63,698 nt of DNA from a bacterium (GCA_037444125.1 JBBINA010000005.1:1-63698), one strand, 5' to 3'. Numbered from the stretch's first letter, positions 30,724 to 48,525 are shown. Notes: a model not told the origin generated them from the sequence alone. Program-made: numbers and translations.

Positions 30724-33462
30724 TTACGAAGACATTTTTTTGAGCATATCTAGAAAAGTTTTGTTTTGTTTGTAAGTGTTTTTTAATAATTTTAGTTTTT
30801 CTTTTTCTGATTTGACTAATTGTTTTGGAGCTTTTTTTATAAATTCTTTGTTTGAAATTAATGCTTTTTTTGTTTTGATTTGATTTTCTAAGTTTAATAG
30901 TTCATTTTTTAGTCTTGTCTTTTCTTTTTGAAAATCAATTGCGCCTTCAAGGTTATAGTAAAGAGTTATATTATCTATTTTTTTTGTGATAGTTTTGTAT
31001 TTTGAAGACGGTTTTTTGAAAATAATCTTGTCATTTATAAAAGATTTGATTATATGTTTGTTTATTTTCAAAATATTATTTTTTTCTACAATAAAAAGCT
31101 TGACTGGTGTGCGGATTGAATAGATGTTGTGTATATTTCTGGTAAATTGGACTACTTTTTGTATTTTTTGAAAATTTTTTGTCCAGTCATCTTTAATTAA
31201 TTTTTTTCTTACTGGCGGCGGATTTTTAATTAATAATAAATCATTTTCATCTTTTATGCCGGCAATGTTTTTCATTTCGCTGTATAAAGCTTCGGTTAAA
31301 AAAGGCATAAAGGGATGCGTCCAAATTAAAAATTCATAAAATATTTGAGTTCCAATTTGGATTCTTAATGGTTTTAAGTCATCGTCTATTTTCATTATTT
31401 CCACATACCAGTCGGCAAAATTAGACCAAATAAAATTGTTAATTTTGTCAAAAGCGACGCCAAAGGAAAAATTAGCTAAATGTTTTTGAAGATCTAATTT
31501 TAATTTTTCAAATTCGGATAAAATCCAATGGCTGGCTAAATCAAAATTATTATTTTGCTGTTTTAAGTAATCTGTTTTATTGAAAACTATATTTTTTATA
31601 ATTTGGTTTGCATAGGGATTACTTAATATAAAACGGCCTATATTCCAAATTTTGTTGATCAGGTTTCTTGTGCCGATAATTTTTTGTTCAGAAATATGTG
31701 AGTCGCCGCCTGGAGCGGTTTTTGAAATCAAACCAATCCGTAGGGCATCAGCGCCATATTTTTTTACCATTGACAAAGGGTCAACCACATTGCCTTTTGA
31801 TTTGGACATTTTTTCGCCTTTTTCATCTCTAATCAAGCCGTGTAGATATACATATTTAAAAGGTACTTTAGAAGTAGCATAAATTCCGAGCATCATCATT
31901 CGGGCGACCCAAAAAAACAAAATATCATAGCCTGTTTCCATTACTGTTGTCGGGTAAAAACTTTGAAAGTCAGGAGCGTTATCTATCCAACCTAAAGTGT
32001 TGAATGGCCATTGCCCGGACGAGAACCATGTATCGAGTGTGTCGGGATCTTGAATTATATTATTTTTGTCGCCGCAAAAAGGACAAATTTTTGGTTTATC
32101 AATACTGACAAATAATTTTCCGCAGCCTCGAGTTTCTTTTATTTTGTTCATTAATTTTTGAAGCTTTGATAGTTGTGCGCTGCCGCAGTAATAAACGGGG
32201 ATTTGCTGTCCCCACCAAAGTTGCCTGGAAATACACCAGTCTTGAATATTTTTTAACCATTGAAACATTATTTTATTGAATCTTTTGGGAATAATTTTAG
32301 TTTGTTTATTTTTTAAAGCTTGAATTGCTTTTTTGGCAAGTGGTTGCATTTTAATAAACCATTGCTTTGAAATCATTGGTTCTATAATTTCATTACAGCG
32401 TTCACAGTGGGCAATGTTGTTATTGTATTCTTCTGTTTTAATAAGTAAATTTTGGTTACGTAATGTTTCGATAATTTTTTGACGCGCTTCGTCTTTTTTT
32501 AATCGGGCAAATTGTTTGCCTTTAGCAGAAATAACTCCTTCGAAATTTATAATTTGGACTAATGGTAGGTTGTGTTTTTTAGCGATTTGGTAGTCAACTG
32601 GATCATGGCTTGGTGTTACTTTAACTGCGCCCGTTCCAAAATCTTTTTTGACCAACTCGTCGGTGATGATTGGAATTTCACGATTCACGAGAGGTAAAAT
32701 AACGGTTTTGCCAATCATTTTTTTGTATCTTCTATCTTTTGGATTTACAGCTATGGCAGTATCACCTAACATTGTTTCTGGTCTGGTGGTGGCAACAGAA
32801 ATAAAAGATTTTAAGTCGTCTTTTAAAGGATACCTAATGTAATAGAGTTTGCTTTTTTCTTTTTTATATTTTATTTCGAGGTCTGACAGTACTGTCTGGC
32901 AGCGTGAGCACCAGTTGACCATTCGATTTTCACGGTAAATTAAACCGTCGTCATAAAGTTTTTTAAAAATCGTGTAAACAGGTTTTAAAAATTTAGGGTC
33001 AAGTGTGAAGGAGTTTCTTGACCAGTCGCAGCTGGCGCCTAAAATTTTTAATTGCTGTTCGATGTTTTTTTTGTTTTCAAGAGTAAAAATCATACATTGT
33101 TTCAAAAATTCATCTCGTCCTAAATCAAATCGCGTTAACCCTTGTTGAGCTAGCTTTTTCTCGAAAGCGACTTGCGTGGCGATGCCAGCATGGTCTGTGC
33201 CGGGAAGCCATAAAGTTATAAAACCTTTTAGTCTTGCCCACCTAGTCATTATGTCCTCCAAAAAAACAAAAATAGCATGCCCCATATGCAAAGATGCGTT
33301 AGCATTGGGCGGTGGCATAATAATACTGAAATGTTTTAAATTTTTAATTTTCAATTTTAAATTGGAAATACAATCCGGATTGAAGTAACCGGCTTTTTCC
33401 CAGAGCGAATATATATATTGTTCATATTTTTCTTGCTGATAATTTTTTTCTAGCAAGACCAT
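30724..33462 (-). CDS. valS: Valyl-tRNA synthetase
   Basis: PPPNANASLHMGH, GTDHAGIATQ, DWCISRQLWWG, DTWFSS and KMSKSKGN; C-terminal coiled coil. Confidence 0.97.
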   Translation of the reverse strand: MVLLEKNYQQEKYEQYIYSLWEKAGYFNPDCISNLKLKIKNLKHFSIIMPPPNANASLHMGHAIFVFLEDIMTRWARLKGFITLWLPGTDHAGIATQVAFEKKLAQQGLTRFDLGRDEFLKQCMIFTLENKKNIEQQLKILGASCDWSRNSFTLDPKFLKPVYTIFKKLYDDGLIYRENRMVNWCSRCQTVLSDLEIKYKKEKSKLYYIRYPLKDDLKSFISVATTRPETMLGDTAIAVNPKDRRYKKMIGKTVILPLVNREIPIITDELVKKDFGTGAVKVTPSHDPVDYQIAKKHNLPLVQIINFEGVISAKGKQFARLKKDEARQKIIETLRNQNLLIKTEEYNNNIAHCERCNEIIEPMISKQWFIKMQPLAKKAIQALKNKQTKIIPKRFNKIMFQWLKNIQDWCISRQLWWGQQIPVYYCGSAQLSKLQKLMNKIKETRGCGKLFVSIDKPKICPFCGDKNNIIQDPDTLDTWFSSGQWPFNTLGWIDNAPDFQSFYPTTVMETGYDILFFWVARMMMLGIYATSKVPFKYVYLHGLIRDEKGEKMSKSKGNVVDPLSMVKKYGADALRIGLISKTAPGGDSHISEQKIIGTRNLINKIWNIGRFILSNPYANQIIKNIVFNKTDYLKQQNNNFDLASHWILSEFEKLKLDLQKHLANFSFGVAFDKINNFIWSNFADWYVEIMKIDDDLKPLRIQIGTQIFYEFLIWTHPFMPFLTEALYSEMKNIAGIKDENDLLLIKNPPPVRKKLIKDDWTKNFQKIQKVVQFTRNIHNIYSIRTPVKLFIVEKNNILKINKHIIKSFINDKIIFKKPSSKYKTITKKIDNITLYYNLEGAIDFQKEKTRLKNELLNLENQIKTKKALISNKEFIKKAPKQLVKSEKEKLKLLKNTYKQNKTFLDMLKKMSS

Positions 33463-33589
33463 AGATAAAATTTTTAAATATCTCTTAAGATAAGTTATTT
33501 ACGCTAGCCTATATTATATGAATGGTTCAGATTAAATACAAGACACTAGTTGAATTTTGATAATTTTAAATAAAACAAAGCAAAAAAAA

Positions 33590-34201
33590 TTAAGCAAAAT
33601 AGTTTAGGTCTTTTAATTTTAAGATTAAATTGTTAACCGCTTGGTGTCGATGGTTACATTTTAGATGTTCATTTTTGTTTAAATCCTGATATAGTTTGTT
33701 AAATTTGTCCACTATGAATAAGCAGCGGAAGGGGTAGCCGGGAGTTTTTAAAGGAGAGGCATTTAGGGCTATATGTCCTTGAATAGAAGCTTCAGAAAAT
33801 ATTTTTATGTTTTTATCTTTGTCTAAAAAGCAAATTACTACTCGTAACTTGCAAGTGCGTTTTTCAAAAGGCACGTTTTTTAATTTTGTTAAAGTGTAAT
33901 TAATAAGTTCTTCATCGTTTACCTCATAACCTGGCCATCGTCTTGATTTTGCCCCGGGCTCGCCATTTAAAAAATCAATTTCTATGCCGCCATCATCAGC
34001 CAAAACCGGCATATCAACTTTATCAATATAAAAACTTGCTTTAACAAAAGCATTGTCAAAAAAATTTTGACCATTTTCTTTTGGTTCTGTTTTGAAATCG
34101 AAATCTTTGGGAGACAAGATTTTGTCAAAAAAATTTTTGAGCAAAGTTTGATATTCGGCTAATTTACCTTGATTATTGGTGGCAATAAAAAGATATTTCA
34201 T
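33590..34201 (-). CDS. rdgB: Non-canonical purine NTP pyrophosphatase (Ham1/RdgB)
   Basis: ATNNQGK, E.G..F.DNA..KA, ADDGG, GEPG..S.RW and NHR motifs. Confidence 0.88.
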   Translation of the reverse strand: MKYLFIATNNQGKLAEYQTLLKNFFDKILSPKDFDFKTEPKENGQNFFDNAFVKASFYIDKVDMPVLADDGGIEIDFLNGEPGAKSRRWPGYEVNDEELINYTLTKLKNVPFEKRTCKLRVVICFLDKDKNIKIFSEASIQGHIALNASPLKTPGYPFRCLFIVDKFNKLYQDLNKNEHLKCNHRHQAVNNLILKLKDLNYFA

Positions 34202-35097
34202 TAAAAAAAATTACGTCGTTTAAAAATGTAAAACATAAATATAGCCACGATTAGCATTATATTAATAACAATCAAAAAATCGCCCGGCGCGCCGATAAAA
34301 GGCATTGATTTTGTTCGCATTGAAAAAATAGCCGCAATAAGCGTTAGTGGGAAAGTAAAAACAGCTATAATGGTCAAAATTTTTATTATCTCATTTGTTT
34401 TAATAGTTAAAATATTTTGCGCCGACATTTCTGCCGAATCAATTATTTCTTTATAATTTTTGATGTAAATAACCACTTCGTCAAATAGGGTTTTTAAGTG
34501 GTCGAAAAACGGCGCTTTAGTTGAATCATAAAAAACCTTTACTTTATTAATAAATTTCTCAAAAGTTATTTTTTGCGGTTCAATGATTTTTATAAAATCT
34601 AGAACATCGCGTTTGATAAGCGATATGTATTTAATTGTTTGAGTAGTTGGATTAGTTAGTTGATCGTTTATATTATCTATGTCAGCCTTAATATGAGTTA
34701 ATTCTCGTTGTAAAAACTCCAGATTAATTTTGATTAAATTATATAAAAATTCAGGTAAATTTATTTCAGAAAAATATTGCTCAAAACTCTTATTCAAAAA
34801 TTCTTCAATTGGTTCAAGTTTATCGTAAGATATTGTAAGCAGTCTGTTTTTATTAATAATAAAATCTATTTCTTGCGGGTAAACTGTTTTTTTTATTTCG
34901 CTATATATAGGTATTTCTAATACTATATATAGGTAGTCATTGTATTCTTCAAATTTTGCACGTGAGGACGGGGATTCAAGTTCGCGCAAATGAGCTTGAT
35001 GGATGTCAAAATGTTTTTTAATAAACTGAAAGTCTTCTAAATGAGGCTTAACAATATAAAACCATGTAAAAGTTTTGAATCCGAAGACTTGGCGCAT
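34201..35097 (-). CDS. corA: CorA-family Mg2+ transporter
   Basis: RAKFEEYNDYLY, NEIIKILTI, then two C-terminal TM helices. The GMN signature appears as SMR. Confidence 0.8.
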   Translation of the reverse strand: MRQVFGFKTFTWFYIVKPHLEDFQFIKKHFDIHQAHLRELESPSSRAKFEEYNDYLYIVLEIPIYSEIKKTVYPQEIDFIINKNRLLTISYDKLEPIEEFLNKSFEQYFSEINLPEFLYNLIKINLEFLQRELTHIKADIDNINDQLTNPTTQTIKYISLIKRDVLDFIKIIEPQKITFEKFINKVKVFYDSTKAPFFDHLKTLFDEVVIYIKNYKEIIDSAEMSAQNILTIKTNEIIKILTIIAVFTFPLTLIAAIFSMRTKSMPFIGAPGDFLIVINIMLIVAIFMFYIFKRRNFF

Positions 35098-37516: not shown

Positions 37517-37550
37517 AAACCTGCATTTTTTTAAAAAATGCAGGTTTTTA
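37517..37550 (+). terminator. Palindromic hairpin after the S8 gene
   Basis: AAACCTGCATTTTT...AAAAATGCAGGTTT followed by T residues. Confidence 0.6.
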
Positions 37551-37689: not shown

Positions 37690-38628
37690 ATGAAAAAATT
37701 AATAGCAGTATTCGTCGCAGTTGCCACTTTGGGTGTTTACGGCTTTGCCGCTGCTCACCCAGATGTGACTTTTGTGGTTTCCAACAGTAACAATGCTAAC
37801 GTTATAAATACTTTAGGATCTCTTTCTACTACTGGCAACAACTTAATTACCGCTGATCAAGATGTAGAGGATGGCGAAATTACTACTGGCAATGCCGAGA
37901 CTGAAGGCACAGTTTCAAATGATATTAACCAAAACTCGGCTGGCATGGACGTTTATGCTGGTTCCGATGTATCTGTAGCTATTAGCAATGAAAATAATGC
38001 CACTGTAAATAATACTGAACTATTGGCAGCTGAAACAGGTGAAAACGAAATTTCAGCTGACCAAGATGTTGGTAGTGGCAGAATCACTACAGGCAATGCC
38101 AAGGCTACAGGTAAAATTGGTAGCGTAAGTGGTATTAATCTTAATGTGGCGGAGTTGCAGATTGGTGATCCTGCTTCTTCTTGCGATGACTGCACTGGCG
38201 TTGATGATGTAAGTGTCTCAATTGAAAATAACAACGAAGCAAATTTAGAGAATATCGTTGTTCCTGTCGGTGATACAGGCGAAAACTTGATTACCGCTGA
38301 ACAAGATGTCGGTTCTTGCGATAGTTGTGGTTCAGGCGAAGCTACTATTGATACTGGCGATGCTGAAGCTAATGGTGAAATTGAGAATGATGTTAATCAA
38401 AATCAAGCTCAAGGTGGCATTTACGGCTCCAGTGATGTCATGGCCGTCGTAACTAACGGTAATGACGACCTTCAGTCGAATACCGTCACGCCAGTAGCTA
38501 ATTCCGGCACTAATGAAATTTCAGCTACACAGGATGTCTCTGGTTCAACCATTACGACTGGTTTAGCCAAAACCACATTGAAAATCATTAACCGCAAGAA
38601 TATCAGCATAACAGATTTCGACTTCTAA
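37690..38628 (+). CDS. Secreted four-repeat N/T/G/D-rich protein, paralog A1 (predicted beta-solenoid)
   Basis: Sec signal MKKLIAV...GFAAA; four ~65-80-aa repeats; CDDC and CDSC loops; RBS GAAAGGAGGTG. Confidence 0.85.
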   Translation: MKKLIAVFVAVATLGVYGFAAAHPDVTFVVSNSNNANVINTLGSLSTTGNNLITADQDVEDGEITTGNAETEGTVSNDINQNSAGMDVYAGSDVSVAISNENNATVNNTELLAAETGENEISADQDVGSGRITTGNAKATGKIGSVSGINLNVAELQIGDPASSCDDCTGVDDVSVSIENNNEANLENIVVPVGDTGENLITAEQDVGSCDSCGSGEATIDTGDAEANGEIENDVNQNQAQGGIYGSSDVMAVVTNGNDDLQSNTVTPVANSGTNEISATQDVSGSTITTGLAKTTLKIINRKNISITDFDF

Positions 38629-38649
38629 AAAGATTTGAAAGCTATTTCC

Positions 38650-38696
38650 CGGGATCCTGCACCTTCATTACAAATAAGAAGGTGCAGGGAATCCCG
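38650..38696 (+). promoter_or_regulatory. Intercistronic stem-loop between A1 and A2
   Basis: GGGAT-CCTGCACCTTC-(11 nt)-GAAGGTGCAGG-ga-ATCCC; no U-tract. Confidence 0.65.
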
Positions 38697-38751
38697 AAGG
38701 GACAAAATTCATAGGCATTAAAAATAATTTTTTCGAAAGGAGGTGAAAAAA

Positions 38752-39690
38752 ATGAAAAAATTAATAGCAGTATTCGTCGCAGTTGCCACTTTGGGTGTTT
38801 ACGGCTTTGCCGCTGCTCACCCAGATGTGACTTTTGTGGTTACAAACAATAACAACGCGCTGGTGACTAATTCGTTAACAAGCTTAGCAACTACTGGCGA
38901 CAACACTATTTCAGCTGATCAGGATGTGGAAGACGGCGAAATAAGCACTGGCAATGCCGAGACTGAAGGCACAGTTGAAAATGATATTAACCAAAACGCG
39001 GCTCAAATGGAGGTTAATGCCGGCTCAGATGTAACGGCATTGGTTAGCAACACAAATGACGCTTTAGTTACTAACGACGAAACTTTAGCGGCAGATTCAG
39101 GCGAAAATGAAATTACAGCCGAGCAGGATGTAGCCGGAGGTATCATAACTACAGGCAATGCCAAAGCTACAGGTAAAATTGGTAGTTTAACTGGCATAAA
39201 TATTAATGTAGCTAGTTTCATTATTGGTGATCCTACTTCTTCTTGCGATGACTGCACTGGCGTTGATGATGTAACTATAGAGGTTGATAATAGAAACGGC
39301 GCTTCTGTTGAAAATGGAATATTAAGCGATGCTGAAACAGGCGAGAACGAAATTGCGGCTGAGCAAGATGTTGATGGATGTAGTTCCTGCGGTGGCGGCG
39401 GCGCTTTGATTGATACGGGTGACGCCACAGCTGAAGGTGAAATAAAAAATGATGAAAATCAAAATGAAACTACGGGTAGTGTCTTTGCTTCAGGCGATGT
39501 AGATGTTGCGGTAGGTAATAATAATCTAGTTTTTGATTTTAATTCAGTTATTCCAGTAGCCGACACGGGTGCCAACGAAATCAGCGCCAGCGAAGATGTT
39601 AGTGATTCAACAATATCTACTGGTTTTGCAAAAACATTGCTTAAGGTGTTCAACCGCAAGAACATTAGCATAACTGAGTTTGAGTTTTAA
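38752..39690 (+). CDS. Secreted four-repeat protein, paralog A2
   Basis: Same signal peptide, repeat register and CxxC loops (CDDC, CSSC) as A1. The track start at 38743 lies inside the RBS, so ATG at 38752 is used. Confidence 0.85.
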   Translation: MKKLIAVFVAVATLGVYGFAAAHPDVTFVVTNNNNALVTNSLTSLATTGDNTISADQDVEDGEISTGNAETEGTVENDINQNAAQMEVNAGSDVTALVSNTNDALVTNDETLAADSGENEITAEQDVAGGIITTGNAKATGKIGSLTGININVASFIIGDPTSSCDDCTGVDDVTIEVDNRNGASVENGILSDAETGENEIAAEQDVDGCSSCGGGGALIDTGDATAEGEIKNDENQNETTGSVFASGDVDVAVGNNNLVFDFNSVIPVADTGANEISASEDVSDSTISTGFAKTLLKVFNRKNISITEFEF

Positions 39691-39706
39691 GCCAGATTAA
39701 TTTTTA

Positions 39707-39754
39707 TAGGAAGAGGTGCAAGCCTGAATTAAAAGGTTATGTTGCCTCTTCCTA
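39707..39754 (+). promoter_or_regulatory. Intercistronic stem-loop after A2
   Basis: TAGGAAGAGG(T)GCAA...TTGCCTCTTCCTA inverted repeat. Confidence 0.65.
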
Positions 39755-39821
39755 AAGGAGGGGAAAAAAATAAAAAAATATTTTAAAGGTATATTAAAGT
39801 ATAAACGTTAAAAATTATAAA

Positions 39822-40316
39822 ATGCGTTTGTCATCAAAAATTAGAAGGGTAAGTTTGTTTACGATGTTTTTTCTGTTCTTGAGTAGTATTGTCGCGGCAA
39901 AAAGCGTTGTTAATAATGATGTTTTTGTTTCTAGCAATAGTGGCGGCAATACTCTTAAAAACGGCAGAGTCATCGAAGGAAAAGAATTAAACAAAGTTGA
40001 GATTAATACGACTATAGACGGCAAAAAATTAGAGCCAATATCATTTACTCAAACGCAAGATAATAAAAAAATTATTGAAAAAAAGATTGATTATGTTTCG
40101 GAAGATGGTTCTGTTCAAGTGAAAAATTCTGTTAAAAGCGAAATTGGTCAAACAGAGTTTTTTCAGGGCAATAATTTTTTTGAGAGGAAAAACCTGCAAA
40201 TTACAGAAATTGAAGTTAAAAAGAGTCTTATAGAACAATTAAAAAATTCAGTTGCTAATTATTTCGGGTCAATAAGATTAGTTTTAAATGTTTTATTTAA
40301 TAATCTTGTTAGATAA
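39822..40316 (+). CDS. Secreted hypothetical protein
   Basis: Signal peptide ending IVAA; VFVSSNSGGN echoes the A/N-x-T/S-G-x-N repeat motif. Confidence 0.7.
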   Translation: MRLSSKIRRVSLFTMFFLFLSSIVAAKSVVNNDVFVSSNSGGNTLKNGRVIEGKELNKVEINTTIDGKKLEPISFTQTQDNKKIIEKKIDYVSEDGSVQVKNSVKSEIGQTEFFQGNNFFERKNLQITEIEVKKSLIEQLKNSVANYFGSIRLVLNVLFNNLVR

Positions 40317-43300
40317 GGTGAGAAAATTTGTTATTTTGTTTTATGCTTTATGGATAGCATTTAATCCGGTAGTTTTGGTTTTTGCTCAAACTGCTAGCAC
40401 TACTGACATCACCGCCCAGTTGCAACAACAAATTATTTCACAAGTTCAAACACAGACTGCTTCTTTGCCAACTTCAAATTCTATCGTTACTAATCAAAAA
40501 AGTTCAAATGTTAATAGTCAAATTAATAATCAGATAAGTGATGAGTTGGCTAAAATTGAACAAACTCAGCAAGAAGTTCCGATTGAAACTCAACAAAAAG
40601 TAGATGAAGCCTCAAAAGAGGCCGCTAGCAAATTAAACGATAAAAACGCCACAGGTAATAACACTAGCGATAATGAAGCGAATAATAATAACCAATTGCC
40701 GTCTTATGCCTATGATGGACCGATAAATCAAAGTTCAGAAAGTGCTAATTCCAATACCCAAGTTCAAAATTCCAATAATGAAAATGTTAGCACCGTACCT
40801 TCGCCAATGGATAGCGATAACGCTCAAATCTTAACTAACGCCAATATTGATCCAGTGCAGACTTCAGTTGGCGATGTACAGATTTCTGGATCAGTTCAAA
40901 CTGGCAATAATGATGGATCAGTTAAAGTTCAAACCGGTAATGTCAAGATTCAAGGCGAGGTCTTCAATCAAGCCAATACCAATACTGTCAGCGTAAACCA
41001 AACTCATCACAGCAATACTTTGGTAGAAAATAAAAACAAAAATCTTGTGGTTAATCTTTTTGATTATTTTGGCAGTTCAGGGCAAAACACAATTGAAAAA
41101 AATGACGGCCGAGCTGAAATTGATACCGGTAATGTTGATATTAGGCTTAATCTTTTGAATTTAACTAATACTAATATTACTAATTCAACCTGGGGTCAAT
41201 ATTTCTATAATTCCGAAGTTCCTTTAAATCAGGATATTAATATTGAAGAAGCTTGGCATAAAGCCGCGCATGATGATTGCAAATTTGGCGAGTGTGCCGG
41301 TGAATTCAAGGTGGTTAATATGAATGAGTCAACGGTGCAAAATAAGGTTAAGGTGCTGGGGATTTCAGGACAAAATAAAATTAAGGATGCTGACGGTGAT
41401 GGCATAATTAGAACAGGCGATGTCAGAGTGGCTACAAATTTAATTAACTTTTTGAATACTAATCTTACAGGTTCAGAGTGGGATTTAAGCGTTATTAATT
41501 TATTTGATGATTGGAAGGGGGATCTTATTTTGCCCGGCAAGCAAAAATACGATAGCAACAAAAAGAACTACAAGCTTTTCCCCAATACAGTTATTGATAA
41601 TAAAAACGATGTTTTGGTGTCTAATGAAATAGTTCTTGACGCTAATACCGGCAATAACCTAATTGATAATAATGACGGTGTTTCGAAAATAAAGACCGGC
41701 GATGCCCTGACTAAATCCAATATTCAAAATGTCATTAACGCTAATTTTCAAGGCGGAGATTGGTTTCTGGTGATTATTAATCGCTTTAATAACTGGGAAG
41801 GCAAAATTTTTAATAAGCCAACTGAAATTGGGGAACTAGTTCAAGACAAAAGTTTGATTTTTTCGTCATTTTTATCCGACGAAATGCTAAAAAATTTGTA
41901 TCATAATGACGATGAAGCTATTTTGTCAGTTACTAATAATAATCTCGGTGAACTTCGTAATGAAATTCTTATACAAGCTATGACAGGTGGCAATGAAATC
42001 CAGGGAAATGATGGGGATGCTGTTATAGAGACAGGCAAGGCGTTAATTCTGGCAAATGTTTTAAATATAGCTAATGTTTCAATTGCTGGCGGCGATTGGC
42101 ACTTGGCGGTTATTAATGTATTTGGCGATTGGCATGGTAATATTTTCTTTGGTAAACCCGACCTTAAAGTAACAGTTGAGAGTAATAAAACAGAGCTGTA
42201 TCAGCCCGGAGAAATGGTTGAATTAACAGCGATTTATTCCAACACCGGTTCAGCTGACGGCGATAACGCTAATCTCACTATGAGTTATGATTCTGATAAT
42301 TTAAAGCCGCTTTCTTCCACAGATTTAACTCAAAATAAAGGAAAAATCACTTGGGACCTAGGTAAGGTGCCTCAAGGAACAACTAAAAAAATAACTCAAC
42401 GCTTTGAGTATATTGGCAAAAATCCAACAGAAACAACAGCCGAAGTTAATGTGGCAATTGCAAGTCCGGTGCCTGATCTTAATATTGCAGATAATACAAA
42501 AAGCTTAGTTTTGGTTTATAAAAATAATAAGCCAGTTCAAAATCCAAAAGAAAATTCGAATAATAATGGGCAATCGACAAATAATGATAATAACTCAAGC
42601 CAAATGAGCAATAATTCAAGCAATAATCAGCAAAGCAATTTAAACAACAATAACCAGCCAAACTCATCAAATAGTTCGTCGGGTAGTAATAATGGCTCAG
42701 TGTCCGCCACTACTAGTAATTCAATATCCAACTCAAACGCTAATAACATCAGCGGTAGTTTTGGCGGTACCTCAAGTTCCGTTTTACAAGGACCAGTTGA
42801 AATTAGTAAATCCAACTCAACTAAAGGTTCAGTTAAACCAGGAGAGACGGTTAGTTATGTCATCAGAGTTAAAAACATTTCTGTAAGTAATATATATGGT
42901 TTAGTTATTACTGATACGATGAAAAATAGCGCTGGTACTATTATTACTTCTGACCGTTGGGAATTTGAAGAAGTAAAGTCAAACAAAGGTTTTGAAATTA
43001 AATACGATGTCACTATTTCTAATGAAACTCCTTCAGGCATATATACTAACTATGCCAAAATTGAAGGTTTTGATTCTCGTGGTGTAAAATTCACGGCTGC
43101 GGCCCAAAGCGTTATAACAGTGGCAAACGAAACATTATTAATGACTACTCTTCAAAACCAAAATCAAACAAATCTTCAACAAGCTATGATGACAACGCCA
43201 GTTATTAAATCAGATATTCCTGCGGAAAGTTTAATCATTAACAATCAAAAACCTTCAAAAATCCAATATCATCAAAACCTTGCCTATGAAAATACTAACC

Positions 43301-43620
43301 TTTTGCCTAGCAACATAAACAGCGTAGTTAGGAGGGTTAAAGAAACTCTTGGCAAGGTGGCTAATTTTGATTCTCCCAAACCGACGAAATTAGCGAATGG
43401 GACAAATGCTACTTTTACTCCACGGTTTATTAAGAAGGATAGTTTTTATGAAGAAAATGCAAGTGAAGGTATGTTGTTAGCTTCTGGTTTATTAGATAAA
43501 TTGACTAATAATTACCCAAAAATTTTAATCTTATTTGTCGTTATAGTTTATATATCAACATTCCTAAATTTTGGAGTAATATATGAAGGACGAGCTACCA
43601 AAAATCGAAAACGGAAATAA
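40288..43620 (+). CDS. Large membrane-anchored surface protein: Q/N-rich N-terminus, five A1-like repeats, two DUF11-like Ig domains, N/S-rich linker, C-terminal TM helix
   Basis: Repeats of the form G-x-N...I-x-TG[ND]...N-x-x-N-T-N; PDLKVT...PGEMVELTAIYSNTG and VEISKS...PGETVSYVIRVKN; hydrophobic ILILFVVIVYISTFL then RATKNRKRK. Alternative GTG start at 40318. Confidence 0.8.
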   Translation: MFYLIILLDKVRKFVILFYALWIAFNPVVLVFAQTASTTDITAQLQQQIISQVQTQTASLPTSNSIVTNQKSSNVNSQINNQISDELAKIEQTQQEVPIETQQKVDEASKEAASKLNDKNATGNNTSDNEANNNNQLPSYAYDGPINQSSESANSNTQVQNSNNENVSTVPSPMDSDNAQILTNANIDPVQTSVGDVQISGSVQTGNNDGSVKVQTGNVKIQGEVFNQANTNTVSVNQTHHSNTLVENKNKNLVVNLFDYFGSSGQNTIEKNDGRAEIDTGNVDIRLNLLNLTNTNITNSTWGQYFYNSEVPLNQDINIEEAWHKAAHDDCKFGECAGEFKVVNMNESTVQNKVKVLGISGQNKIKDADGDGIIRTGDVRVATNLINFLNTNLTGSEWDLSVINLFDDWKGDLILPGKQKYDSNKKNYKLFPNTVIDNKNDVLVSNEIVLDANTGNNLIDNNDGVSKIKTGDALTKSNIQNVINANFQGGDWFLVIINRFNNWEGKIFNKPTEIGELVQDKSLIFSSFLSDEMLKNLYHNDDEAILSVTNNNLGELRNEILIQAMTGGNEIQGNDGDAVIETGKALILANVLNIANVSIAGGDWHLAVINVFGDWHGNIFFGKPDLKVTVESNKTELYQPGEMVELTAIYSNTGSADGDNANLTMSYDSDNLKPLSSTDLTQNKGKITWDLGKVPQGTTKKITQRFEYIGKNPTETTAEVNVAIASPVPDLNIADNTKSLVLVYKNNKPVQNPKENSNNNGQSTNNDNNSSQMSNNSSNNQQSNLNNNNQPNSSNSSSGSNNGSVSATTSNSISNSNANNISGSFGGTSSSVLQGPVEISKSNSTKGSVKPGETVSYVIRVKNISVSNIYGLVITDTMKNSAGTIITSDRWEFEEVKSNKGFEIKYDVTISNETPSGIYTNYAKIEGFDSRGVKFTAAAQSVITVANETLLMTTLQNQNQTNLQQAMMTTPVIKSDIPAESLIINNQKPSKIQYHQNLAYENTNLLPSNINSVVRRVKETLGKVANFDSPKPTKLANGTNATFTPRFIKKDSFYEENASEGMLLASGLLDKLTNNYPKILILFVVIVYISTFLNFGVIYEGRATKNRKRK

Positions 43621-44470
43621 ATTAACAGTTTTATTTAACAGGCTTACATCTTTTGCTATTATTGTTTTAGTTTTTTTTATAATTGGCGGGTCAATTTTGG
43701 CTATATCTAATAGTCGAGATTTAAAAATAAAAGCTAATATAAATCCAGCTATACAAGTTTCGTCCGGAGAAATTAATTTTAATGACTTAACTTCGGGTCA
43801 AACCAGCACTCAGGAAATTGAGATTAAATTAAGCGACATTTTTAATGAAACCCAGCCGGTAAAATCAGTACATTATGTTATTCATAAATTTAACCAACCC
43901 AAAAATTCGCAAGACCTTACTTATTGCCAGAAAACGACTAATTTTCCTGATATTAGAAATTGGAGCAATTATTCAGCTGAAGATTGGCAGGATTTTATTG
44001 ATTCAGCCTATTTTGAAAAATGCAACTTATCGCTTTGCCCCTTTATTTCTATTAAAAAGTCAACTAATGAGATGTCAGAAAACGGAGCTTTATTTGCGGC
44101 TCGTCCTCAGGTAGTCCAAAATGATTCTGGTTTTTTAGATGTTTTTGTTGAAAACAATGTTCAGAATAGAGACCCCAGTTCTATATTGACAGATACTAGA
44201 AAAAGTGATAAATTTGACTATGGAGTTGATGCCTTTAATTATCCAAAAATAATAGATAATACTTTTGAGTTTACAAAAGCCAAAGGATATTTGGAGAAAA
44301 ATACGGATTCTAGCGATAAATGGCTTGTAACTTTAGAAGCGCCCTGTTTTAAAAATGACTCAAACTGCAATGCAAGGTACAAGGAACTTTTTGACAAGAT
44401 ACCCAACGAACTGGCTAATCAGAATTGGGGTTGCTCGATTTGGTACGAAATAATCAATATTGAAAGATAA
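43583..44470 (+). CDS. Exported Cys-containing protein, TasA-like/Ig-like subunit candidate
   Basis: N-terminal hydrophobic helix; KIKANI strand, EINFNDLTSG, LCPF, DKWLVTLEAPC and WGCSIWYEI. Confidence 0.65.
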   Translation: MKDELPKIENGNKLTVLFNRLTSFAIIVLVFFIIGGSILAISNSRDLKIKANINPAIQVSSGEINFNDLTSGQTSTQEIEIKLSDIFNETQPVKSVHYVIHKFNQPKNSQDLTYCQKTTNFPDIRNWSNYSAEDWQDFIDSAYFEKCNLSLCPFISIKKSTNEMSENGALFAARPQVVQNDSGFLDVFVENNVQNRDPSSILTDTRKSDKFDYGVDAFNYPKIIDNTFEFTKAKGYLEKNTDSSDKWLVTLEAPCFKNDSNCNARYKELFDKIPNELANQNWGCSIWYEIINIER

Positions 44471-44895
44471 TGAATTTTTTTAAAGGCAAAACAGAAAAGA
44501 AACTGTTTTGGACAGGAATTATTGTTTTTATAATTGTTTTTATTGTTATTGTCATTTCAAGACAAGTGAGTTTTGATATTTATGTAACAGTAATACCCTC
44601 AAAAAATGTTTTAGAAGTTAATTTTGATTCTCATCACATTAATTTCGGAGTTGTTAGCCCTGGATTTGTTGCGCATAAATATATTGATCTTAAGAACGAT
44701 TCTAAATTGACTAATGTTTTTTACATAAAAATTAAAGGCGAGATTGCCAGTTGGCTAAAAACTGATAATAGTCTTTTTGCCGTGAAACCTGAATCATCAA
44801 GACAAATACAACTTACCTTATCAGTTCCTAAAATAGTAAAATTTGGGACTTATAAAGGCGTGATAAGGCTTTATAATTTTTATACTATTTTTTAA
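44470..44895 (+). CDS. Small exported Ig-like protein
   Basis: TM/signal segment, then HINFGVVSPG...IDLKN...VKPESSRQIQLTLSVP...GTYKGVIRL; TAATG coupling on both sides. Confidence 0.7.
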   Translation: MNFFKGKTEKKLFWTGIIVFIIVFIVIVISRQVSFDIYVTVIPSKNVLEVNFDSHHINFGVVSPGFVAHKYIDLKNDSKLTNVFYIKIKGEIASWLKTDNSLFAVKPESSRQIQLTLSVPKIVKFGTYKGVIRLYNFYTIF

Positions 44896-46154
44896 TGCGC
44901 GGTTTTTTTACACGCAAAATAAGCTTATGTTTAGTTATGGCAGTAATAGCTGTTTTGATATGGCCTAGTAAAATTTTGGGTTTTGAAGCTTATCAGGTTA
45001 GAATAAACGCGGTACTTCGGCCTCAAGACCAGATATCTCCTCCGCCCCAACAGCAATGCGAAACAGTTGTTTTAGAAGGCAATATGAATATTGCTAGTAT
45101 GACTTTTAGAAATAAAAGTGTTATTTTAAAAACTGGCAGCGTTTTAGTTCCTAAGCTGTCAAATATTAATCTTTATGTGGGATGCGATTTTATAATTGAA
45201 AGAGGCGCTTCAATTGATGTCAACAATGCCCAAGATGGTTTTATCCGTTTGATAATAGGACAGAATTTAATTTTAAATGGTAAAATTTTAGCTAAATCCA
45301 ACGGTACACCTTCGTCTGTTCGAATTTCAACTGGAGCAGACGCTCTTATTAACGGCGAAATTGATAGCTCAGGTTCTGCTTCTGCCGGTATGATAAGAAT
45401 TGATAGCAACAGAAAACTTGTAATAAATTCTCAAAGCATTAGAGCTAATTCATTAGACGGCACAGCCGGAGAAATTAGACTTAATGTACTTGATGATTTA
45501 GAAATTAATGGGAAATTGGAAGCTAAAGGTATTAATATTAATGCTTCAGGTGGTTCTATAAGAGCTGTTGTTGAGGGCAAAGTAGCTATTGCTGGCGTTA
45601 TAGATGTATCAGGCAATCAAAAAGGCGGCAGTATTAGAATTTCTGCTGAAAAAAACATTAATTTAGAAAACAGTGGTCAAATTAATTTTTCTTCTCAAAA
45701 TGGTAATGGCGGTATAGTTATAATCAATACGGGTAAAGATTTAGAAATTAAAGGTTCTTTGATTGGCGATGGTTTAAGGTCTGGAGGGTCGTTTATAGCT
45801 ACAATTGATAAAGACTCTTTAATCACGGGTATTATAACGGCAAACGCTTTTGATCCTAGTTCAGGAGAAGGCGGTGTTATTGGTTTAAATGCTAGTAATG
45901 GAAATCTAATAATTTCAGGCAAGCTTGAGGCTAAAGGCAAAACAAAAAACGGATCAATTAATTTAACTTACTGTTCTAAAAATTTTTCGGGCGCTCAATT
46001 TAATCCTTTACCCTCAGAAGTTGATAATTGTCCTAATATTCAAAGTTTAACAACTGAAAATTCGCTTTATACTCCAATTCAAACTAATACATTTTTTATG
46101 AGCCAAATTGACAGCCCTTTGCTGAATTATTTTAATATTTTTATAAAAAAATAA
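44895..46154 (+). CDS. Secreted Gly-rich beta-helix (adhesin-like) protein
   Basis: Signal peptide, then FEAYQVRINAV, then about 8 repeats of the form GG-x-I-x-I-x-A-x-x-D/N-L-x-I-x-G-x-I-x-A. Confidence 0.7.
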   Translation: MRGFFTRKISLCLVMAVIAVLIWPSKILGFEAYQVRINAVLRPQDQISPPPQQQCETVVLEGNMNIASMTFRNKSVILKTGSVLVPKLSNINLYVGCDFIIERGASIDVNNAQDGFIRLIIGQNLILNGKILAKSNGTPSSVRISTGADALINGEIDSSGSASAGMIRIDSNRKLVINSQSIRANSLDGTAGEIRLNVLDDLEINGKLEAKGININASGGSIRAVVEGKVAIAGVIDVSGNQKGGSIRISAEKNINLENSGQINFSSQNGNGGIVIINTGKDLEIKGSLIGDGLRSGGSFIATIDKDSLITGIITANAFDPSSGEGGVIGLNASNGNLIISGKLEAKGKTKNGSINLTYCSKNFSGAQFNPLPSEVDNCPNIQSLTTENSLYTPIQTNTFFMSQIDSPLLNYFNIFIKK

Positions 46155-46156
46155 TT

Positions 46157-47470
46157 ATGCCAAAATTTGCTATGGTAATAAAATTAATCTTGTTTTTTAT
46201 GCTTATTTCGGTAAGCAGAATTTTTGCTCAAGATATTTCAATTTTTACGATTTCCACAGACCTTATTGATTTGAGCAATATTTTTGCTGGAGAAAAATTT
46301 ACAAGGACTTTTAGGGTTAGTCTTGACCCTGCAGTTACAAATAAAATTCTAAATTATAAAATAATCCGTCCAACAAATAGCCCCTTCTGCAATAGCATTT
46401 TATTTAAACCGGAAGAGCAAAATGATGCCATTAATTCCAGTTTTTTAAGTGCGTCTAGCGACAGAGAAGATATTTGGGAATTAGTTATAGAAGTTCCGGA
46501 ACTTGAAAATAGTACTTTGGCCAGTAATAAGACAATGATTTCTGCCGGTAATTATGAGTGTAATATTCAGGTTGAAGCAATTTCAGTGCAAGATGAGACT
46601 AGCCAACCATCGCCGCCAAGTAATGGTAGTGGAGGTGGTAGTGCGCCAGGCAATGATGTTAACGTTCCCTCGCAGCCACAAGGTCAAAGCGGTTCTGGAG
46701 GAGGCGGTTTCTTAATAGTTTCTCAACAAACGCAACAAAAAGGCGAAGACTTTCAAACTAATGCGTTTGGTCTAGTCGTAGATAATGTTCCTCCTAAAAT
46801 CACACCCCCAACTGAAGATTTATTTCTTATTAATGAATCTTTTAAGATTAAAGAGATTGGCAGCGATTATATCATTATTATGTTTAACACATCGCTGCCT
46901 TTGTATGTAAAGGTTGTTTATGATGTGAAAAGCCATGACCCAATTGAATCCGATAAAAAAAATTATGGTTATGCCTCCTCGACGGAAGAAACAACTAGCA
47001 GTGGTTCATTTTTTGAAATAAAGTTAGTTGGTTTAAATCCCGACACTGCTTATTATTTTAGAATTGTGATGAGAAATCTTAACTTGATAAAGCCAAGCAA
47101 AGAGTTTTATGTGAAGACTTTAACCGCGAGAAAGACTCCCGAAGTAGCTAAACAAACGGTTACCGCAACAACGACGCAGCCAAGAGGTGATAAAGAAGAA
47201 GGACAAGAGCAAGAAGCTAACGGGCTAACACCAAAATTTTTCAGCTTAGCCAATCTGAAAAGTTTTTTAAGCAACTTGCCAGTGGAAATGTGGTTAATAA
47301 TAATTTTGGCTTTAATTTTGATAATAGATTATATAAGACGAAAAGTTATCCAACGGATTAAAAAATTGAAAAAGCATTCACTATTTACAAGATTAAAAAA
47401 ATACTTTATAGTGTTAATATTTCTGTTGTTAGGTAAAAAAAAGAAAAAGGGTAACAGATTTAATTCTTAA
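46157..47470 (+). CDS. Surface protein: TasA-like N-domain, G/S/P linker, Fn3-like domain, C-terminal TM anchor
   Basis: IDLSNIFAGEKFTRTFRVSL...DIWELVIEVP...YECNIQVE resembles the 43583 protein; GLNPDTAYYFRIV (Fn3); WLIIILALILIIDY then a basic tail. Confidence 0.7.
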   Translation: MPKFAMVIKLILFFMLISVSRIFAQDISIFTISTDLIDLSNIFAGEKFTRTFRVSLDPAVTNKILNYKIIRPTNSPFCNSILFKPEEQNDAINSSFLSASSDREDIWELVIEVPELENSTLASNKTMISAGNYECNIQVEAISVQDETSQPSPPSNGSGGGSAPGNDVNVPSQPQGQSGSGGGGFLIVSQQTQQKGEDFQTNAFGLVVDNVPPKITPPTEDLFLINESFKIKEIGSDYIIIMFNTSLPLYVKVVYDVKSHDPIESDKKNYGYASSTEETTSSGSFFEIKLVGLNPDTAYYFRIVMRNLNLIKPSKEFYVKTLTARKTPEVAKQTVTATTTQPRGDKEEGQEQEANGLTPKFFSLANLKSFLSNLPVEMWLIIILALILIIDYIRRKVIQRIKKLKKHSLFTRLKKYFIVLIFLLLGKKKKKGNRFNS

Positions 47471-47478
47471 AAATTATT

Positions 47479-48525
47479 ATGTTAAATAAAGCCAAAAAAC
47501 TTTCTATTTTATTAAGTTTTTTAGCTATTTCTGTTGGGATAGGGTTATCTTTTAAAAGTTTAGTCGGGGCGCAAGATAAGCTAACTATCGAGCAATTTCT
47601 TGTGCGCGAAACTGAAGCAGGTGCTTTGAGTGGGATTTCTCTTGAATTTATTGTTAAAGCTTGCGATAAACGCGATTCTTCGATTGCAGCAACATTAAAT
47701 TATGGCGATGGCTCAATCGATACATTTAGTATTCGTTGTGGTGAAAGTATATCTAAAATTCATACCTATAACTCTAGCGGTCGTAATATTATTACTCTTA
47801 AGGTTAAGAATGCCTTTGGAGAGGAGTTGAGGCGACAACTTGAGGTTGATGTTAGAAACTTTCCGCCGGTTATTCGCGAATTTGGATTAAATCCATTGAG
47901 CAATTTGGCGGCTAATCAAATGGTGTTGTTTGATATTTCTGTTTGCGATTCGGCTAAAGACGTTATAAAAGCGCGGTTGTTGCCGGGTGACGGTCGGGAA
48001 ATAGTTATTGATCCTAGCTGTGGTTTAAGCACTTACTCGGTTATTTATACTGCCAATGGCACTTATACAGCTAAAATTATAGCTGAAGACTCTAATAACC
48101 AAAGAAGCGAAAAATCGTTGAATGTGACTATTGGCGGAGTGGCTACAACCATTCCTATTATTCCGCCAGCGCCATCTGATTTAAGGAGAAAATTAGTGCG
48201 CACCAATGAAAATGGCCCAATTTATTATATAACTGAAATATTAAGAAAAAGAAAAATACCTAATATGGATGTTTTTCATTCTTATGGTAATAAACTTTCT
48301 GATGTTATCTTAATTTCGGAGTCAACTTTGCAATTATTTCCTGATGTTAAATTAATTCATTTAGATAATGAAATGCCTTTTCGCGTTTTTTTGTTAGAAA
48401 ACAATGTTAAACGGTGGATTACCACTTTTGAAGCCTTAAAGCGTTTAGGTATGGAAAATGAACCAGTAGCGCCGGTAAACTTAACTGAGTTTATTACCTA
48501 TCCAACCGGACAACCTATTTTTTGA
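47479..48525 (+). CDS. Secreted protein with two PKD-like domains and a C-terminal surface repeat domain
   Basis: LNYGDGS...HTYNSSG and LLPGDGR...YTANGTYTA (PKD); IYYIT...KRKIPNMDVFHSYG and VFLLENNVKRWITT..YPTG repeats. Confidence 0.75.
   Translation: MLNKAKKLSILLSFLAISVGIGLSFKSLVGAQDKLTIEQFLVRETEAGALSGISLEFIVKACDKRDSSIAATLNYGDGSIDTFSIRCGESISKIHTYNSSGRNIITLKVKNAFGEELRRQLEVDVRNFPPVIREFGLNPLSNLAANQMVLFDISVCDSAKDVIKARLLPGDGREIVIDPSCGLSTYSVIYTANGTYTAKIIAEDSNNQRSEKSLNVTIGGVATTIPIIPPAPSDLRRKLVRTNENGPIYYITEILRKRKIPNMDVFHSYGNKLSDVILISESTLQLFPDVKLIHLDNEMPFRVFLLENNVKRWITTFEALKRLGMENEPVAPVNLTEFITYPTGQPIF

Follow-up and report, generated by a model that had tools for sequence, protein, structure and literature searches.

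The 63,698-nucleotide bacterial sequence GCA_037444125.1 JBBINA010000005.1:1-63698 (in its full length referred to as the window) carries an intact gene for a 1110-residue membrane-anchored protein, which is preceded on the same strand by the genes for two secreted paralogues, A1 and A2, and for a small basic protein, p164. A gene for an S8 subtilase lies further upstream, and five additional genes are packed downstream (Table 1). Here we describe this gene set, in which the anchored protein displays on a stalk a head built from the same repeat as A1 and A2, and in which relatives of the anchored gene are almost always accompanied by genes for soluble repeat proteins. We propose that the anchored protein may form the base of an extracellular assembly of these soluble neighbors.

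The anchored protein is a type-I surface protein: a signal peptide directs its export, a C-terminal transmembrane (TM) helix keeps it in the membrane, and its head is distal on a stalk. Hydropathy and reading of the sequence place the N-terminal hydrophobic stretch at about residues 10-33, and A33, which precedes the likely cleavage site, is near-invariant among 50 homologues. From the membrane outward, the protein runs through a juxtamembrane segment, which probably spans the wall, a second immunoglobulin (Ig)-like domain, a linker, a first Ig-like domain, the repeat head and an N-terminal extension. This extension of 156 residues is 53% N+Q+S+T (N 16%, Q 13.5%, S 13.5% and T 9.6%) and lineage-specific, most relatives having a short version or none. 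The initial annotation had outlined a Q/N/T-rich N-terminus, linker, TM helix and basic tail, and we recovered all of these and the peptides it quoted at the expected positions, including the N/S/Q linker peptide at residues 757-789. An LPXTG sorting signal is absent from the window protein. Among relatives, a C-terminal TM helix was found in 37 of 76 and LPXTG together with a TM helix in 2 of 76, PG_binding_1 occurs in 5 of 50, and the homologue P0007 has an LPITG sorting motif; since relatives carry such alternative envelope anchors, the family is consistently cell-bound.

We scanned all ten proteins of the gene cluster against Pfam and NCBIfam, with no match in any repeat region, and 50 family members against Pfam, which yielded stalk and anchor domains only. 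Neither Ig-like domain of the window protein gave a significant Pfam match, the only one being a sub-threshold match of domain 2 to MG2 (E 3e-4). Their assignment as Ig-like, already made in the initial annotation, rests on alignment with P0004, a 42%-identical homologue that passes the Pfam cut-offs for DUF11/CLIPPER at residues 641-746 and for DUF7507/CLIPPER_2 at 840-941; DUF11 is present in 36 and DUF7507 in 18 of the 50 family members. These Pfam families, since renamed CLIPPER and CLIPPER_2, are CnaA-like domains that form the stalks of fibrillar adhesins and often contain an isopeptide bond (PMC12617251). K841, D875 and N921 match positions at which the family consensus keeps K, D and TN.A, and are, from this consensus and the cited work, candidate isopeptide-bond residues.

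The head is composed of units of about 55 residues with the pattern V.N.N.a.V.N.....a.TG.N.....G..I.TGdA.......N..N.N. A hidden Markov model (HMM) built from the window's own repeat units located four strong copies at residues 243-297, 339-393, 433-487 and 546-599 (E 1e-17 to 1e-19 each), whereas the fifth copy counted in the initial annotation proved to be a weak, degenerate N-terminal unit (residues 183-232, E 0.003). Representative repeat peptides are NTGNNLIDNNDGVSKIKTGDALTKSNIQNVINAN at residues 452-485 and MTGGNEIQGNDGDAVIETGKALILANVLNIANVS at 565-598. Repeats 2-5 are each followed by a W-containing strand, at residues 301-308, 398-411 (WDLSVINLFDDWKG), 491-505 and 604-617 (WHLAVINVFGDWHG). 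Such extra aromatic strands after the last four units, for example WDLSVINLFDDWKGDLILPG, are missing from A1 and A2, and aromatic residues make up 8.1% of the head compared with 1.7-3.1% of A1/A2. The W-strand motif is likewise missing from the soluble partners of the species-level loci described below, save for two single regular-expression matches (L012 and L032).

No Pfam or NCBIfam model matched the head of the window protein, nor did any Pfam model match that of the 50 relatives, and no known adhesive domain was found in it by Pfam, NCBIfam, or PDB sequence and fold comparison. Sequence searches of the PDB, whether started from single proteins or from a profile of 50 sequences, gave no significant match to the head, and its AlphaFold2 (AF2) model matched no PDB fold. 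This model, computed from a 7-sequence alignment, is all-beta with a predicted local distance difference test score (pLDDT) of 71.4, reaching 93 in the last module, and a predicted template modelling score (pTM) of 0.76. It comprises four similar modules of 80-110 residues with about seven strands each, unlike the short coils typical of solenoids, and so does not support the solenoid initially envisaged on the flexible stalk, while the membrane-tethered, distal placement of the head stands. The head probably adopts a new fold, an assignment that is provisional because the model is of only moderate quality.

To compare the head with A1 and A2, we used reciprocal profiles, one built from the heads of anchored proteins only and one from A1/A2-like (A-type) proteins only. 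Searched against 5494 open reading frames (ORFs), the head-only profile matched A1 (1.7e-14), A2 (4.7e-14) and p164 (2.5e-4) and had no other match in the window, and the A-type-only profile matched the anchored protein at 5.3e-11. Because these independent profiles each match the other group, the relation between the repeats is, at the level of sequence, one of homology rather than composition or chance, in agreement with the common repeat that had been proposed at the outset. BLASTP aligned the anchored protein with A1/A2 at 40% identity over 63 residues (E 6e-4). In total, the anchored protein holds five 'TG.N / TGDA' units, A1 and A2 four each and p164 one weak unit. A1, whose N-terminus is hydrophobic by hydropathy, has no Trp and 1.7% aromatics in its mature form, and both A1 and A2 have an isoelectric point (pI) of 4.05; A1 is a candidate major subunit.

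The anchored family became visible when 1.84 billion cluster representatives (50% identity clusters) were searched exhaustively with a profile, while word-indexed homology searches returned 14 and 4-8 matches and were swamped by low-complexity words. The head family comprises 2676 clusters at E <=1e-3 and 1257 at E <=1e-30, mostly of 800-1100 residues, from metagenome-assembled genomes (MAGs) of Patescibacteria/Paceibacterota, under source names such as 'hypothetical', 'TIGR01451 repeat protein' and 'peptidoglycan-binding protein'. For a species-level sample with one genome per GTDB species, 80 of 180 relatives were taken as loci, including Giovannoni-, Wildermuth-, Taylor-, Zambryski-, Kaiser-, Yonath-, Yanofsky- and Lloydbacteria as well as Doudna-, Kerfeld- and Roizmanbacteria. 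We scored as soluble partners repeat proteins of <600 residues encoded <=4 kb upstream on the same strand. One to four of these lie just upstream of the anchored gene in 72 of the 76 assessable loci, so that anchored homologues rarely occur without soluble paralogues, the reverse of the outcome that the initial annotation had named as refuting its proposal. Soluble partners are also found upstream in the metagenome contigs L001-L005, L007 and L008. We found no published description of this cassette in the literature.

Some loci from co-assembly MAGs are labelled Saccharibacteria, Gammaproteobacteria, Bdellovibrionales or Binatia, as given by the source projects; the Gammaproteobacteria, Bdellovibrionales and Binatia labels (L022, L023, L031, L037, L047, L055, L057 and others) are probably labelling or binning artefacts.

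A third conserved partner, missing from the initial annotation's account, is p164, whose gene overlaps the anchored gene by 29 nt. An iterative jackhmmer search seeded with p164 converged on the repeat family. The 17 p164-type proteins that we aligned begin with a signal peptide and a single degenerate unit (V.N.VSVSA.TGGN...G.V.EG), continue with a linker of acidic character and end in an amphipathic helix (F..I..FF.YVFSIF). Mature p164 has a pI of 9.1, as against 4.05 for A1/A2. A p164-type protein is conserved immediately upstream of the anchored gene, with a frequency traced to about 20 loci; an HMM of the C-terminal helix recovered mostly its own seeds. By sequence criteria, the cassette conserved in Patescibacteria appears to have three parts, namely one or more soluble repeat proteins, a small one-repeat protein and the anchored repeat protein. 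The idea that p164 donates a half-repeat missing from the first unit of the head was dropped, as both hold degenerate full units. The annotated p164 start has no obvious ribosome-binding site, and a Shine-Dalgarno-like AAGGAGGGG lies at 39755-39775, right after the A2 hairpin and about 55 nt before that start; the start, or a small upstream ORF, may be mis-set.

The A1 and A2 stop codons are each followed directly by a stable RNA stem-loop (Table 1). Stem-loops were also found 3' of A-type genes in L001, L004, L010 and L007 (z -3.2 to -5.9), and we compared the folding of the 100 nt downstream of genes across sampled loci. Downstream of A-type genes (n=76), the median minimum free energy (MFE) was -36.4 kcal/mol, a median gain of -15.5 kcal/mol over shuffled sequences, compared with -22.0 and -1.3 kcal/mol for control genes (n=100) and -20.4 and -2.3 kcal/mol for anchored genes (n=83). 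The difference between A-type and other downstream folds is pronounced (Mann-Whitney p about 1e-16 to 1e-18). Operons that encode a major structural subunit ahead of minor components, such as pap and fim, usually carry a stable hairpin behind their first gene, and the gene layout here would fit abundant A-type subunits and a rarer anchor.

Table 1. Genes, protein segments and RNA hairpins at the locus, in window coordinates
Feature	Coordinates	Strand	Details
S8 subtilase, secreted or membrane-bound, 609 aa	35530..37359	+	Peptidase_S8 E 4e-60; Fervidolysin-type prodomain
Terminator-like hairpin between S8 and A1	37517..37547	+	14-bp stem and T-rich tail
A1, secreted, very acidic four-repeat protein, 312 aa	37690..38628	+	four repeat matches, E about 1e-21 each
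GC-rich RNA stem-loop right after A1 stop codon	38646..38702	+	MFE -36.8 kcal/mol, z -3.7, 0/200 shuffles as stable
A2, A1 paralogue, 315 aa, 68% identical	38743..39690	+	four repeats
RNA stem-loop right after A2 stop codon	39707..39754	+	MFE -32.9 kcal/mol, z -3.6, 0/200 shuffles as stable
p164, small basic protein	39822..40316	+	signal peptide, one degenerate repeat, C-terminal amphipathic helix
Anchored protein, 1110 aa	40288-43620	+	intact ORF
Signal peptide, aa 1-33, ends VFA/Q	40288..40386	+	hydropathy; cleavage site inferred
Q/N/S/T-rich low-complexity N-terminal extension, aa 34-189	40387..40854	+	composition
Repeat head, aa 190-625	40855..42162	+	repeat HMM; all-beta AF2 model
Ig-like domain 1, aa 626-745, DUF11/CLIPPER-like	42163..42522	+	aligned with P0004 641-746
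N/S/Q/T-rich flexible linker, aa 746-834	42523..42789	+	73% N+Q+S+T, 89 aa
Ig-like domain 2, aa 835-945, DUF7507/CLIPPER_2-like	42790..43122	+	aligned with P0004 840-941
Juxtamembrane segment, aa 946-1078 (about 130 aa)	43123..43521	+	no domain match; composition
C-terminal TM helix, aa 1079-1099, and basic tail EGRATKNRKRK, aa 1100-1110	43522..43617	+	hydropathy >2.2
p295, p141, p419, p437, p348	43583..48525	+	packed downstream, overlaps/gaps -38 to +8 nt; weak Pfam matches
p419, secreted, G.IRI/G.IRL-type beta-helix-like repeats	44895-46154	+	DUF7305 sub-threshold, E 1.6e-4
p437	46157-47470	+	signal peptide, G/S-rich linker, Fn3-like domain, C-terminal TM helix, basic tail
p348	47479-48525	+	two PKD domains; sub-threshold PamR match, E 0.005

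We read the anchored protein as the base of an extracellular surface assembly of its soluble paralogues, with p164 as adaptor or cap and the S8 protease as an optional processing enzyme, and assign this reading a probability of about 0.45; that the anchored-plus-soluble gene set builds a major, undescribed cell-surface structure is probable. In the proposed mechanism, A1 and A2 would be made in excess, given the putatively stabilizing or attenuating hairpins 3' of their genes, and these acidic, aromatic-poor subunits would form an extracellular fibre or lattice. The anchored head would join, and might seed, this assembly via homologous repeat-to-repeat beta contacts, thereby tying it to the cell, and its extra W-strands would give each head repeat a hydrophobic core of its own. 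The basic p164 would act as adaptor or cap, and in cassettes flanked by the S8 protease this enzyme may process one component. A broader version, in which the cassette supplies many Patescibacteria with their main proteinaceous surface structure (either a fibre or the S-layer of ultra-small cells), with an unrecognized beta-repeat fold and the anchored paralogue as both template and tether, strikes us as doubtful.

Several observations weigh against the assembly proposal. The hairpins could act simply as terminators, and the genes behind them would then require a promoter of their own, and a C-terminal TM helix went undetected in 34 of 76 relatives. The AF2 model of A1, computed from 8 sequences, is unreliable (pLDDT 52.8, pTM 0.45) and therefore unusable for a fold search or an interface argument. 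Its failure at a similarly shallow alignment to that of the head, on the other hand, speaks weakly, because of that shallowness, for the proposal: it hints that A1 may not be a stable monomer alone, and together with the low aromatic content it would suit subunits whose folding depends on partners or ions. Also against the proposal, the window's A1/A2 rank their own anchored protein only 26th of 77, and across the family the cognate anchored protein is the best match of the A-type repeats in just 7-8 of 77 cases (mean percentile 0.30-0.32). As cognate similarity is only slightly above non-cognate, the A-type and anchored lineages appear to be ancient paralogues kept side by side rather than recent copies. 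Both recent duplication and sequence-matched templating were rejected, cognate enrichment being weak family-wide and absent for the window, and the templating role initially ascribed to the head thus loses any sequence-matched sign.

The 4 of 76 loci in which no soluble partner was detected also count against a common assembly and, with the slight cognate co-variation and the contig L006 (the only clear exception among the metagenome contigs, in which the anchored gene runs almost to the contig end), would favor an anchored protein that acts alone as an adhesin or wall protein, its upstream neighbors being functionally unrelated, for instance secreted Ca2+-binding or matrix proteins that share its domain and operon. 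We regard this as very improbable, since adjacent same-strand synteny is near-universal across lineages that share only about 25-30% identity, and its persistence at this distance makes a shared function hard to avoid. A shared function short of polymerization, in which the stalked protein resembles a fibrillar adhesin and its head binds a set number of A-type and p164-type partners as a host-recognition or adhesion tip, would instead yield a fixed heteromeric surface complex. Such a complex would resemble the Csc/WxL complexes of lactobacilli and enterococci, in which a TM-anchored protein and several secreted partners come from one operon. The signal peptide, distal head, CLIPPER-like stalk and anchor do conform to fibrillar-adhesin architecture (PMC12617251), abstracts on the Patescibacteria describe them as largely episymbionts that must attach to hosts, and the wide variation of the soluble partners (1-4 genes, 1-6 repeats, some with extra N-terminal domains, as in L008 and L012) fits diversifying recognition modules. 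The stalk, however, has two Ig-like domains only and no long tandem array, the A-type proteins are low-complexity, acidic and repeat-only with no binding domain recognizable by Pfam or NCBIfam, and their hairpins, if they raise expression as we infer, would suggest a large excess over 1:1 partners. On balance, we consider a fixed complex unlikely.

A two-dimensional surface layer on ultra-small cells of the candidate phyla radiation (CPR), with an A-type lattice and the anchored protein as its pillar above membrane and wall, appears less plausible still. It accords with a family that is widespread in the phylum, with acidic secreted subunits, with a gene layout that would fit high expression and with anchors directed to the envelope, be they TM, LPXTG or PG-binding. 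Cryo-electron microscopy of groundwater ultra-small bacteria by Luef et al. in 2015 reportedly showed an S-layer. An S-layer survey reports S-layer proteins in Patescibacteria (10.1101/2024.05.28.596244). Nonetheless, no SLH or other S-layer domain was matched with Pfam or NCBIfam, and the A-type proteins are small (170-560 residues) and contain Cys pairs, unusual for S-layer proteins.

The theme of anchored and secreted paralogues is known from other systems, whereas the repeat family described here is unclassified and widespread in Patescibacteria. Streptomyces chaplins, which comprise the long sortase-anchored ChpA-C and the short secreted ChpD-H with one repeat domain common to both, similarly combine envelope-anchored with small secreted paralogues, the secreted ones being thought to build and the anchored ones to hold, and some relatives of the window protein also use LPXTG. 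No chaplin domain was matched with Pfam, however; the repeat here, of about 55 residues, is marked by Asn ladders and by TG.N / TGDA turns, and an Ig-like stalk and W-strands are added in the anchored protein. Curli (CsgA/CsgB) and Fap, too, pair a major repeat subunit with a minor, cell-associated homologue that could template assembly, and strand-turn-strand repeats with conserved Gly, Asn and Gln are a common element. Neither the Curlin repeat nor the CsgE/F/G secretion genes were matched in the head, A1, A2 or the neighboring genes (Pfam/NCBIfam, E up to 0.1); unlike in curli, the host is monoderm, the nucleator candidate is a 1110-residue stalked membrane protein, and the similarity of A-type proteins to the anchor is ancient and not genome-matched.

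The TasA/TapA/SipW system of Bacillus subtilis likewise unites a fibre subunit, an anchoring or nucleating accessory and a processing peptidase in one locus, but camelysin/TasA or SipW homology was not matched (Pfam, NCBIfam), and its peptidase counterpart here, an S8 subtilase, accompanies only about 17% of cassettes. Fibrillar adhesins with CLIPPER stalks (PMC12617251) share the signal peptide, the distal non-stalk head, the CnaA-like CLIPPER/CLIPPER_2 domains (as assigned here through P0004) and the C-terminal anchor; they differ in that the two stalk domains here are split by an 89-residue linker rather than arranged in tandem, in the unclassified repeat head, and in that obligate neighboring soluble paralogues are no feature of theirs. 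Pam pili of the CPR consist of Ig-like pilins joined by donor-strand exchange with PapD-like chaperones (bioRxiv 10.64898/2026.03.03.709456). They resemble the cassette as a CPR-specific, Sec-dependent and operon-encoded surface assembly of secreted and C-terminally TM-anchored parts with no envelope-spanning machine. We rejected membership in this system: among the PamA/B-type pilins, PamC/D chaperones and PamR that define it, only PamR gave an NCBIfam match, which was to p348 and sub-threshold (15.8 bits against a cut-off of 300).

Patescibacteria may hold a large share of bacterial diversity, and most seem to live in attachment to other cells; type IV pili and the recent Pam pili aside, their surface structures are molecularly obscure. 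The family described here, with sequence clusters numbering in the thousands, is spread over lineages of the Parcubacteria, Microgenomates and Doudnabacteria types and has no Pfam, NCBIfam or PDB relative. If a fibre or lattice is indeed formed, the cassette would name parts of a main CPR surface structure, add a new self-assembling repeat fold, and provide targets for cryo-electron tomography, proteomics and host-attachment studies. On the broader version outlined above, with the anchored protein as both template and tether, the cassette would encode a bacterial surface polymer of a new, self-assembling class, nucleated by a membrane-bound homologue.

The soluble repeat proteins show additional features. 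CxxC-type motifs lie between the repeats of A1, SSCDDCTG at residues 163-170 (38170-38200) and GSCDSCGSG at residues 208-216 (38290-38320), and at the same places in A2; they could be disulfides or metal sites, and a conserved CGC occupies the corresponding position in A-type proteins from other genomes. In the soluble proteins of many other Patescibacteria (for example L030, L034, L067, L076, L086, L033 and L049), long Gly/Asp/Asn-rich loops (GGDGEEGGNGGDAEG...) are inserted between the TG.N and TGDA halves of each repeat, and the loop-bearing proteins end in a conserved N.VNRN.TR[IV].R. These loops look like Ca2+-binding segments, although the similarity to RTX repeats (GGXGXDXUX) is one of appearance only, with no Pfam match to the HemolysinCabind model. 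An extra N-terminal domain of about 180 residues is found in the soluble repeat proteins at 8207-9331 of L008 and 8256-9359 of L012, and a 564-residue lamin-tail-domain (LTD) protein encoded downstream in L008 also contains two repeats.

With regard to the flanking genes, the S8 subtilase is a facultative accessory neighbor of about one cassette in six. It was found <=10 kb from the cassette in 17 of 89 loci, always directly flanking with a gap of <=960 nt, and the terminator-like hairpin between S8 and A1 suggests that it forms a separate transcription unit. Cleavage of the N-terminal extension by S8, raised in the initial annotation, gained no support, the extension being lineage-specific and S8 lying behind its own terminator and beside only a minority of cassettes. 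The downstream genes p295, p141, p419, p437 and p348 encode lineage-specific accessory surface proteins with homologues confined to near relatives and a few further loci; p419 keeps its place 3' of the anchored gene in close relatives and L010 only. Given the domains of p437 and p348 and the sub-threshold PamR match of p348, the locus may mix components of more than one surface system.

The window's ClpB is <=59% identical to that of species representatives, the best matches being Paceibacteria/Parcubacteria-type MAGs, and the window sequence is contained in three public runs, all DNA from subsurface metagenome. Upstream of S8, the ValRS and CorA genes at 30724-35097 are syntenic with 2206-5998 of contig L001, whose large repeat protein shares 70% identity with that of the window in the best local alignment (67% of the query); on the strength of this synteny, the cassette region is stable chromosomal DNA and no mobile island. 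The G+C content of the window is about 33% and peaks at 0.40 in the A1-A2 region (38001-40000), probably owing to Gly/Ala/Asp/Glu/Thr-rich coding sequence and the GC-rich hairpins, although the codon bias of highly expressed genes could be an alternative source.

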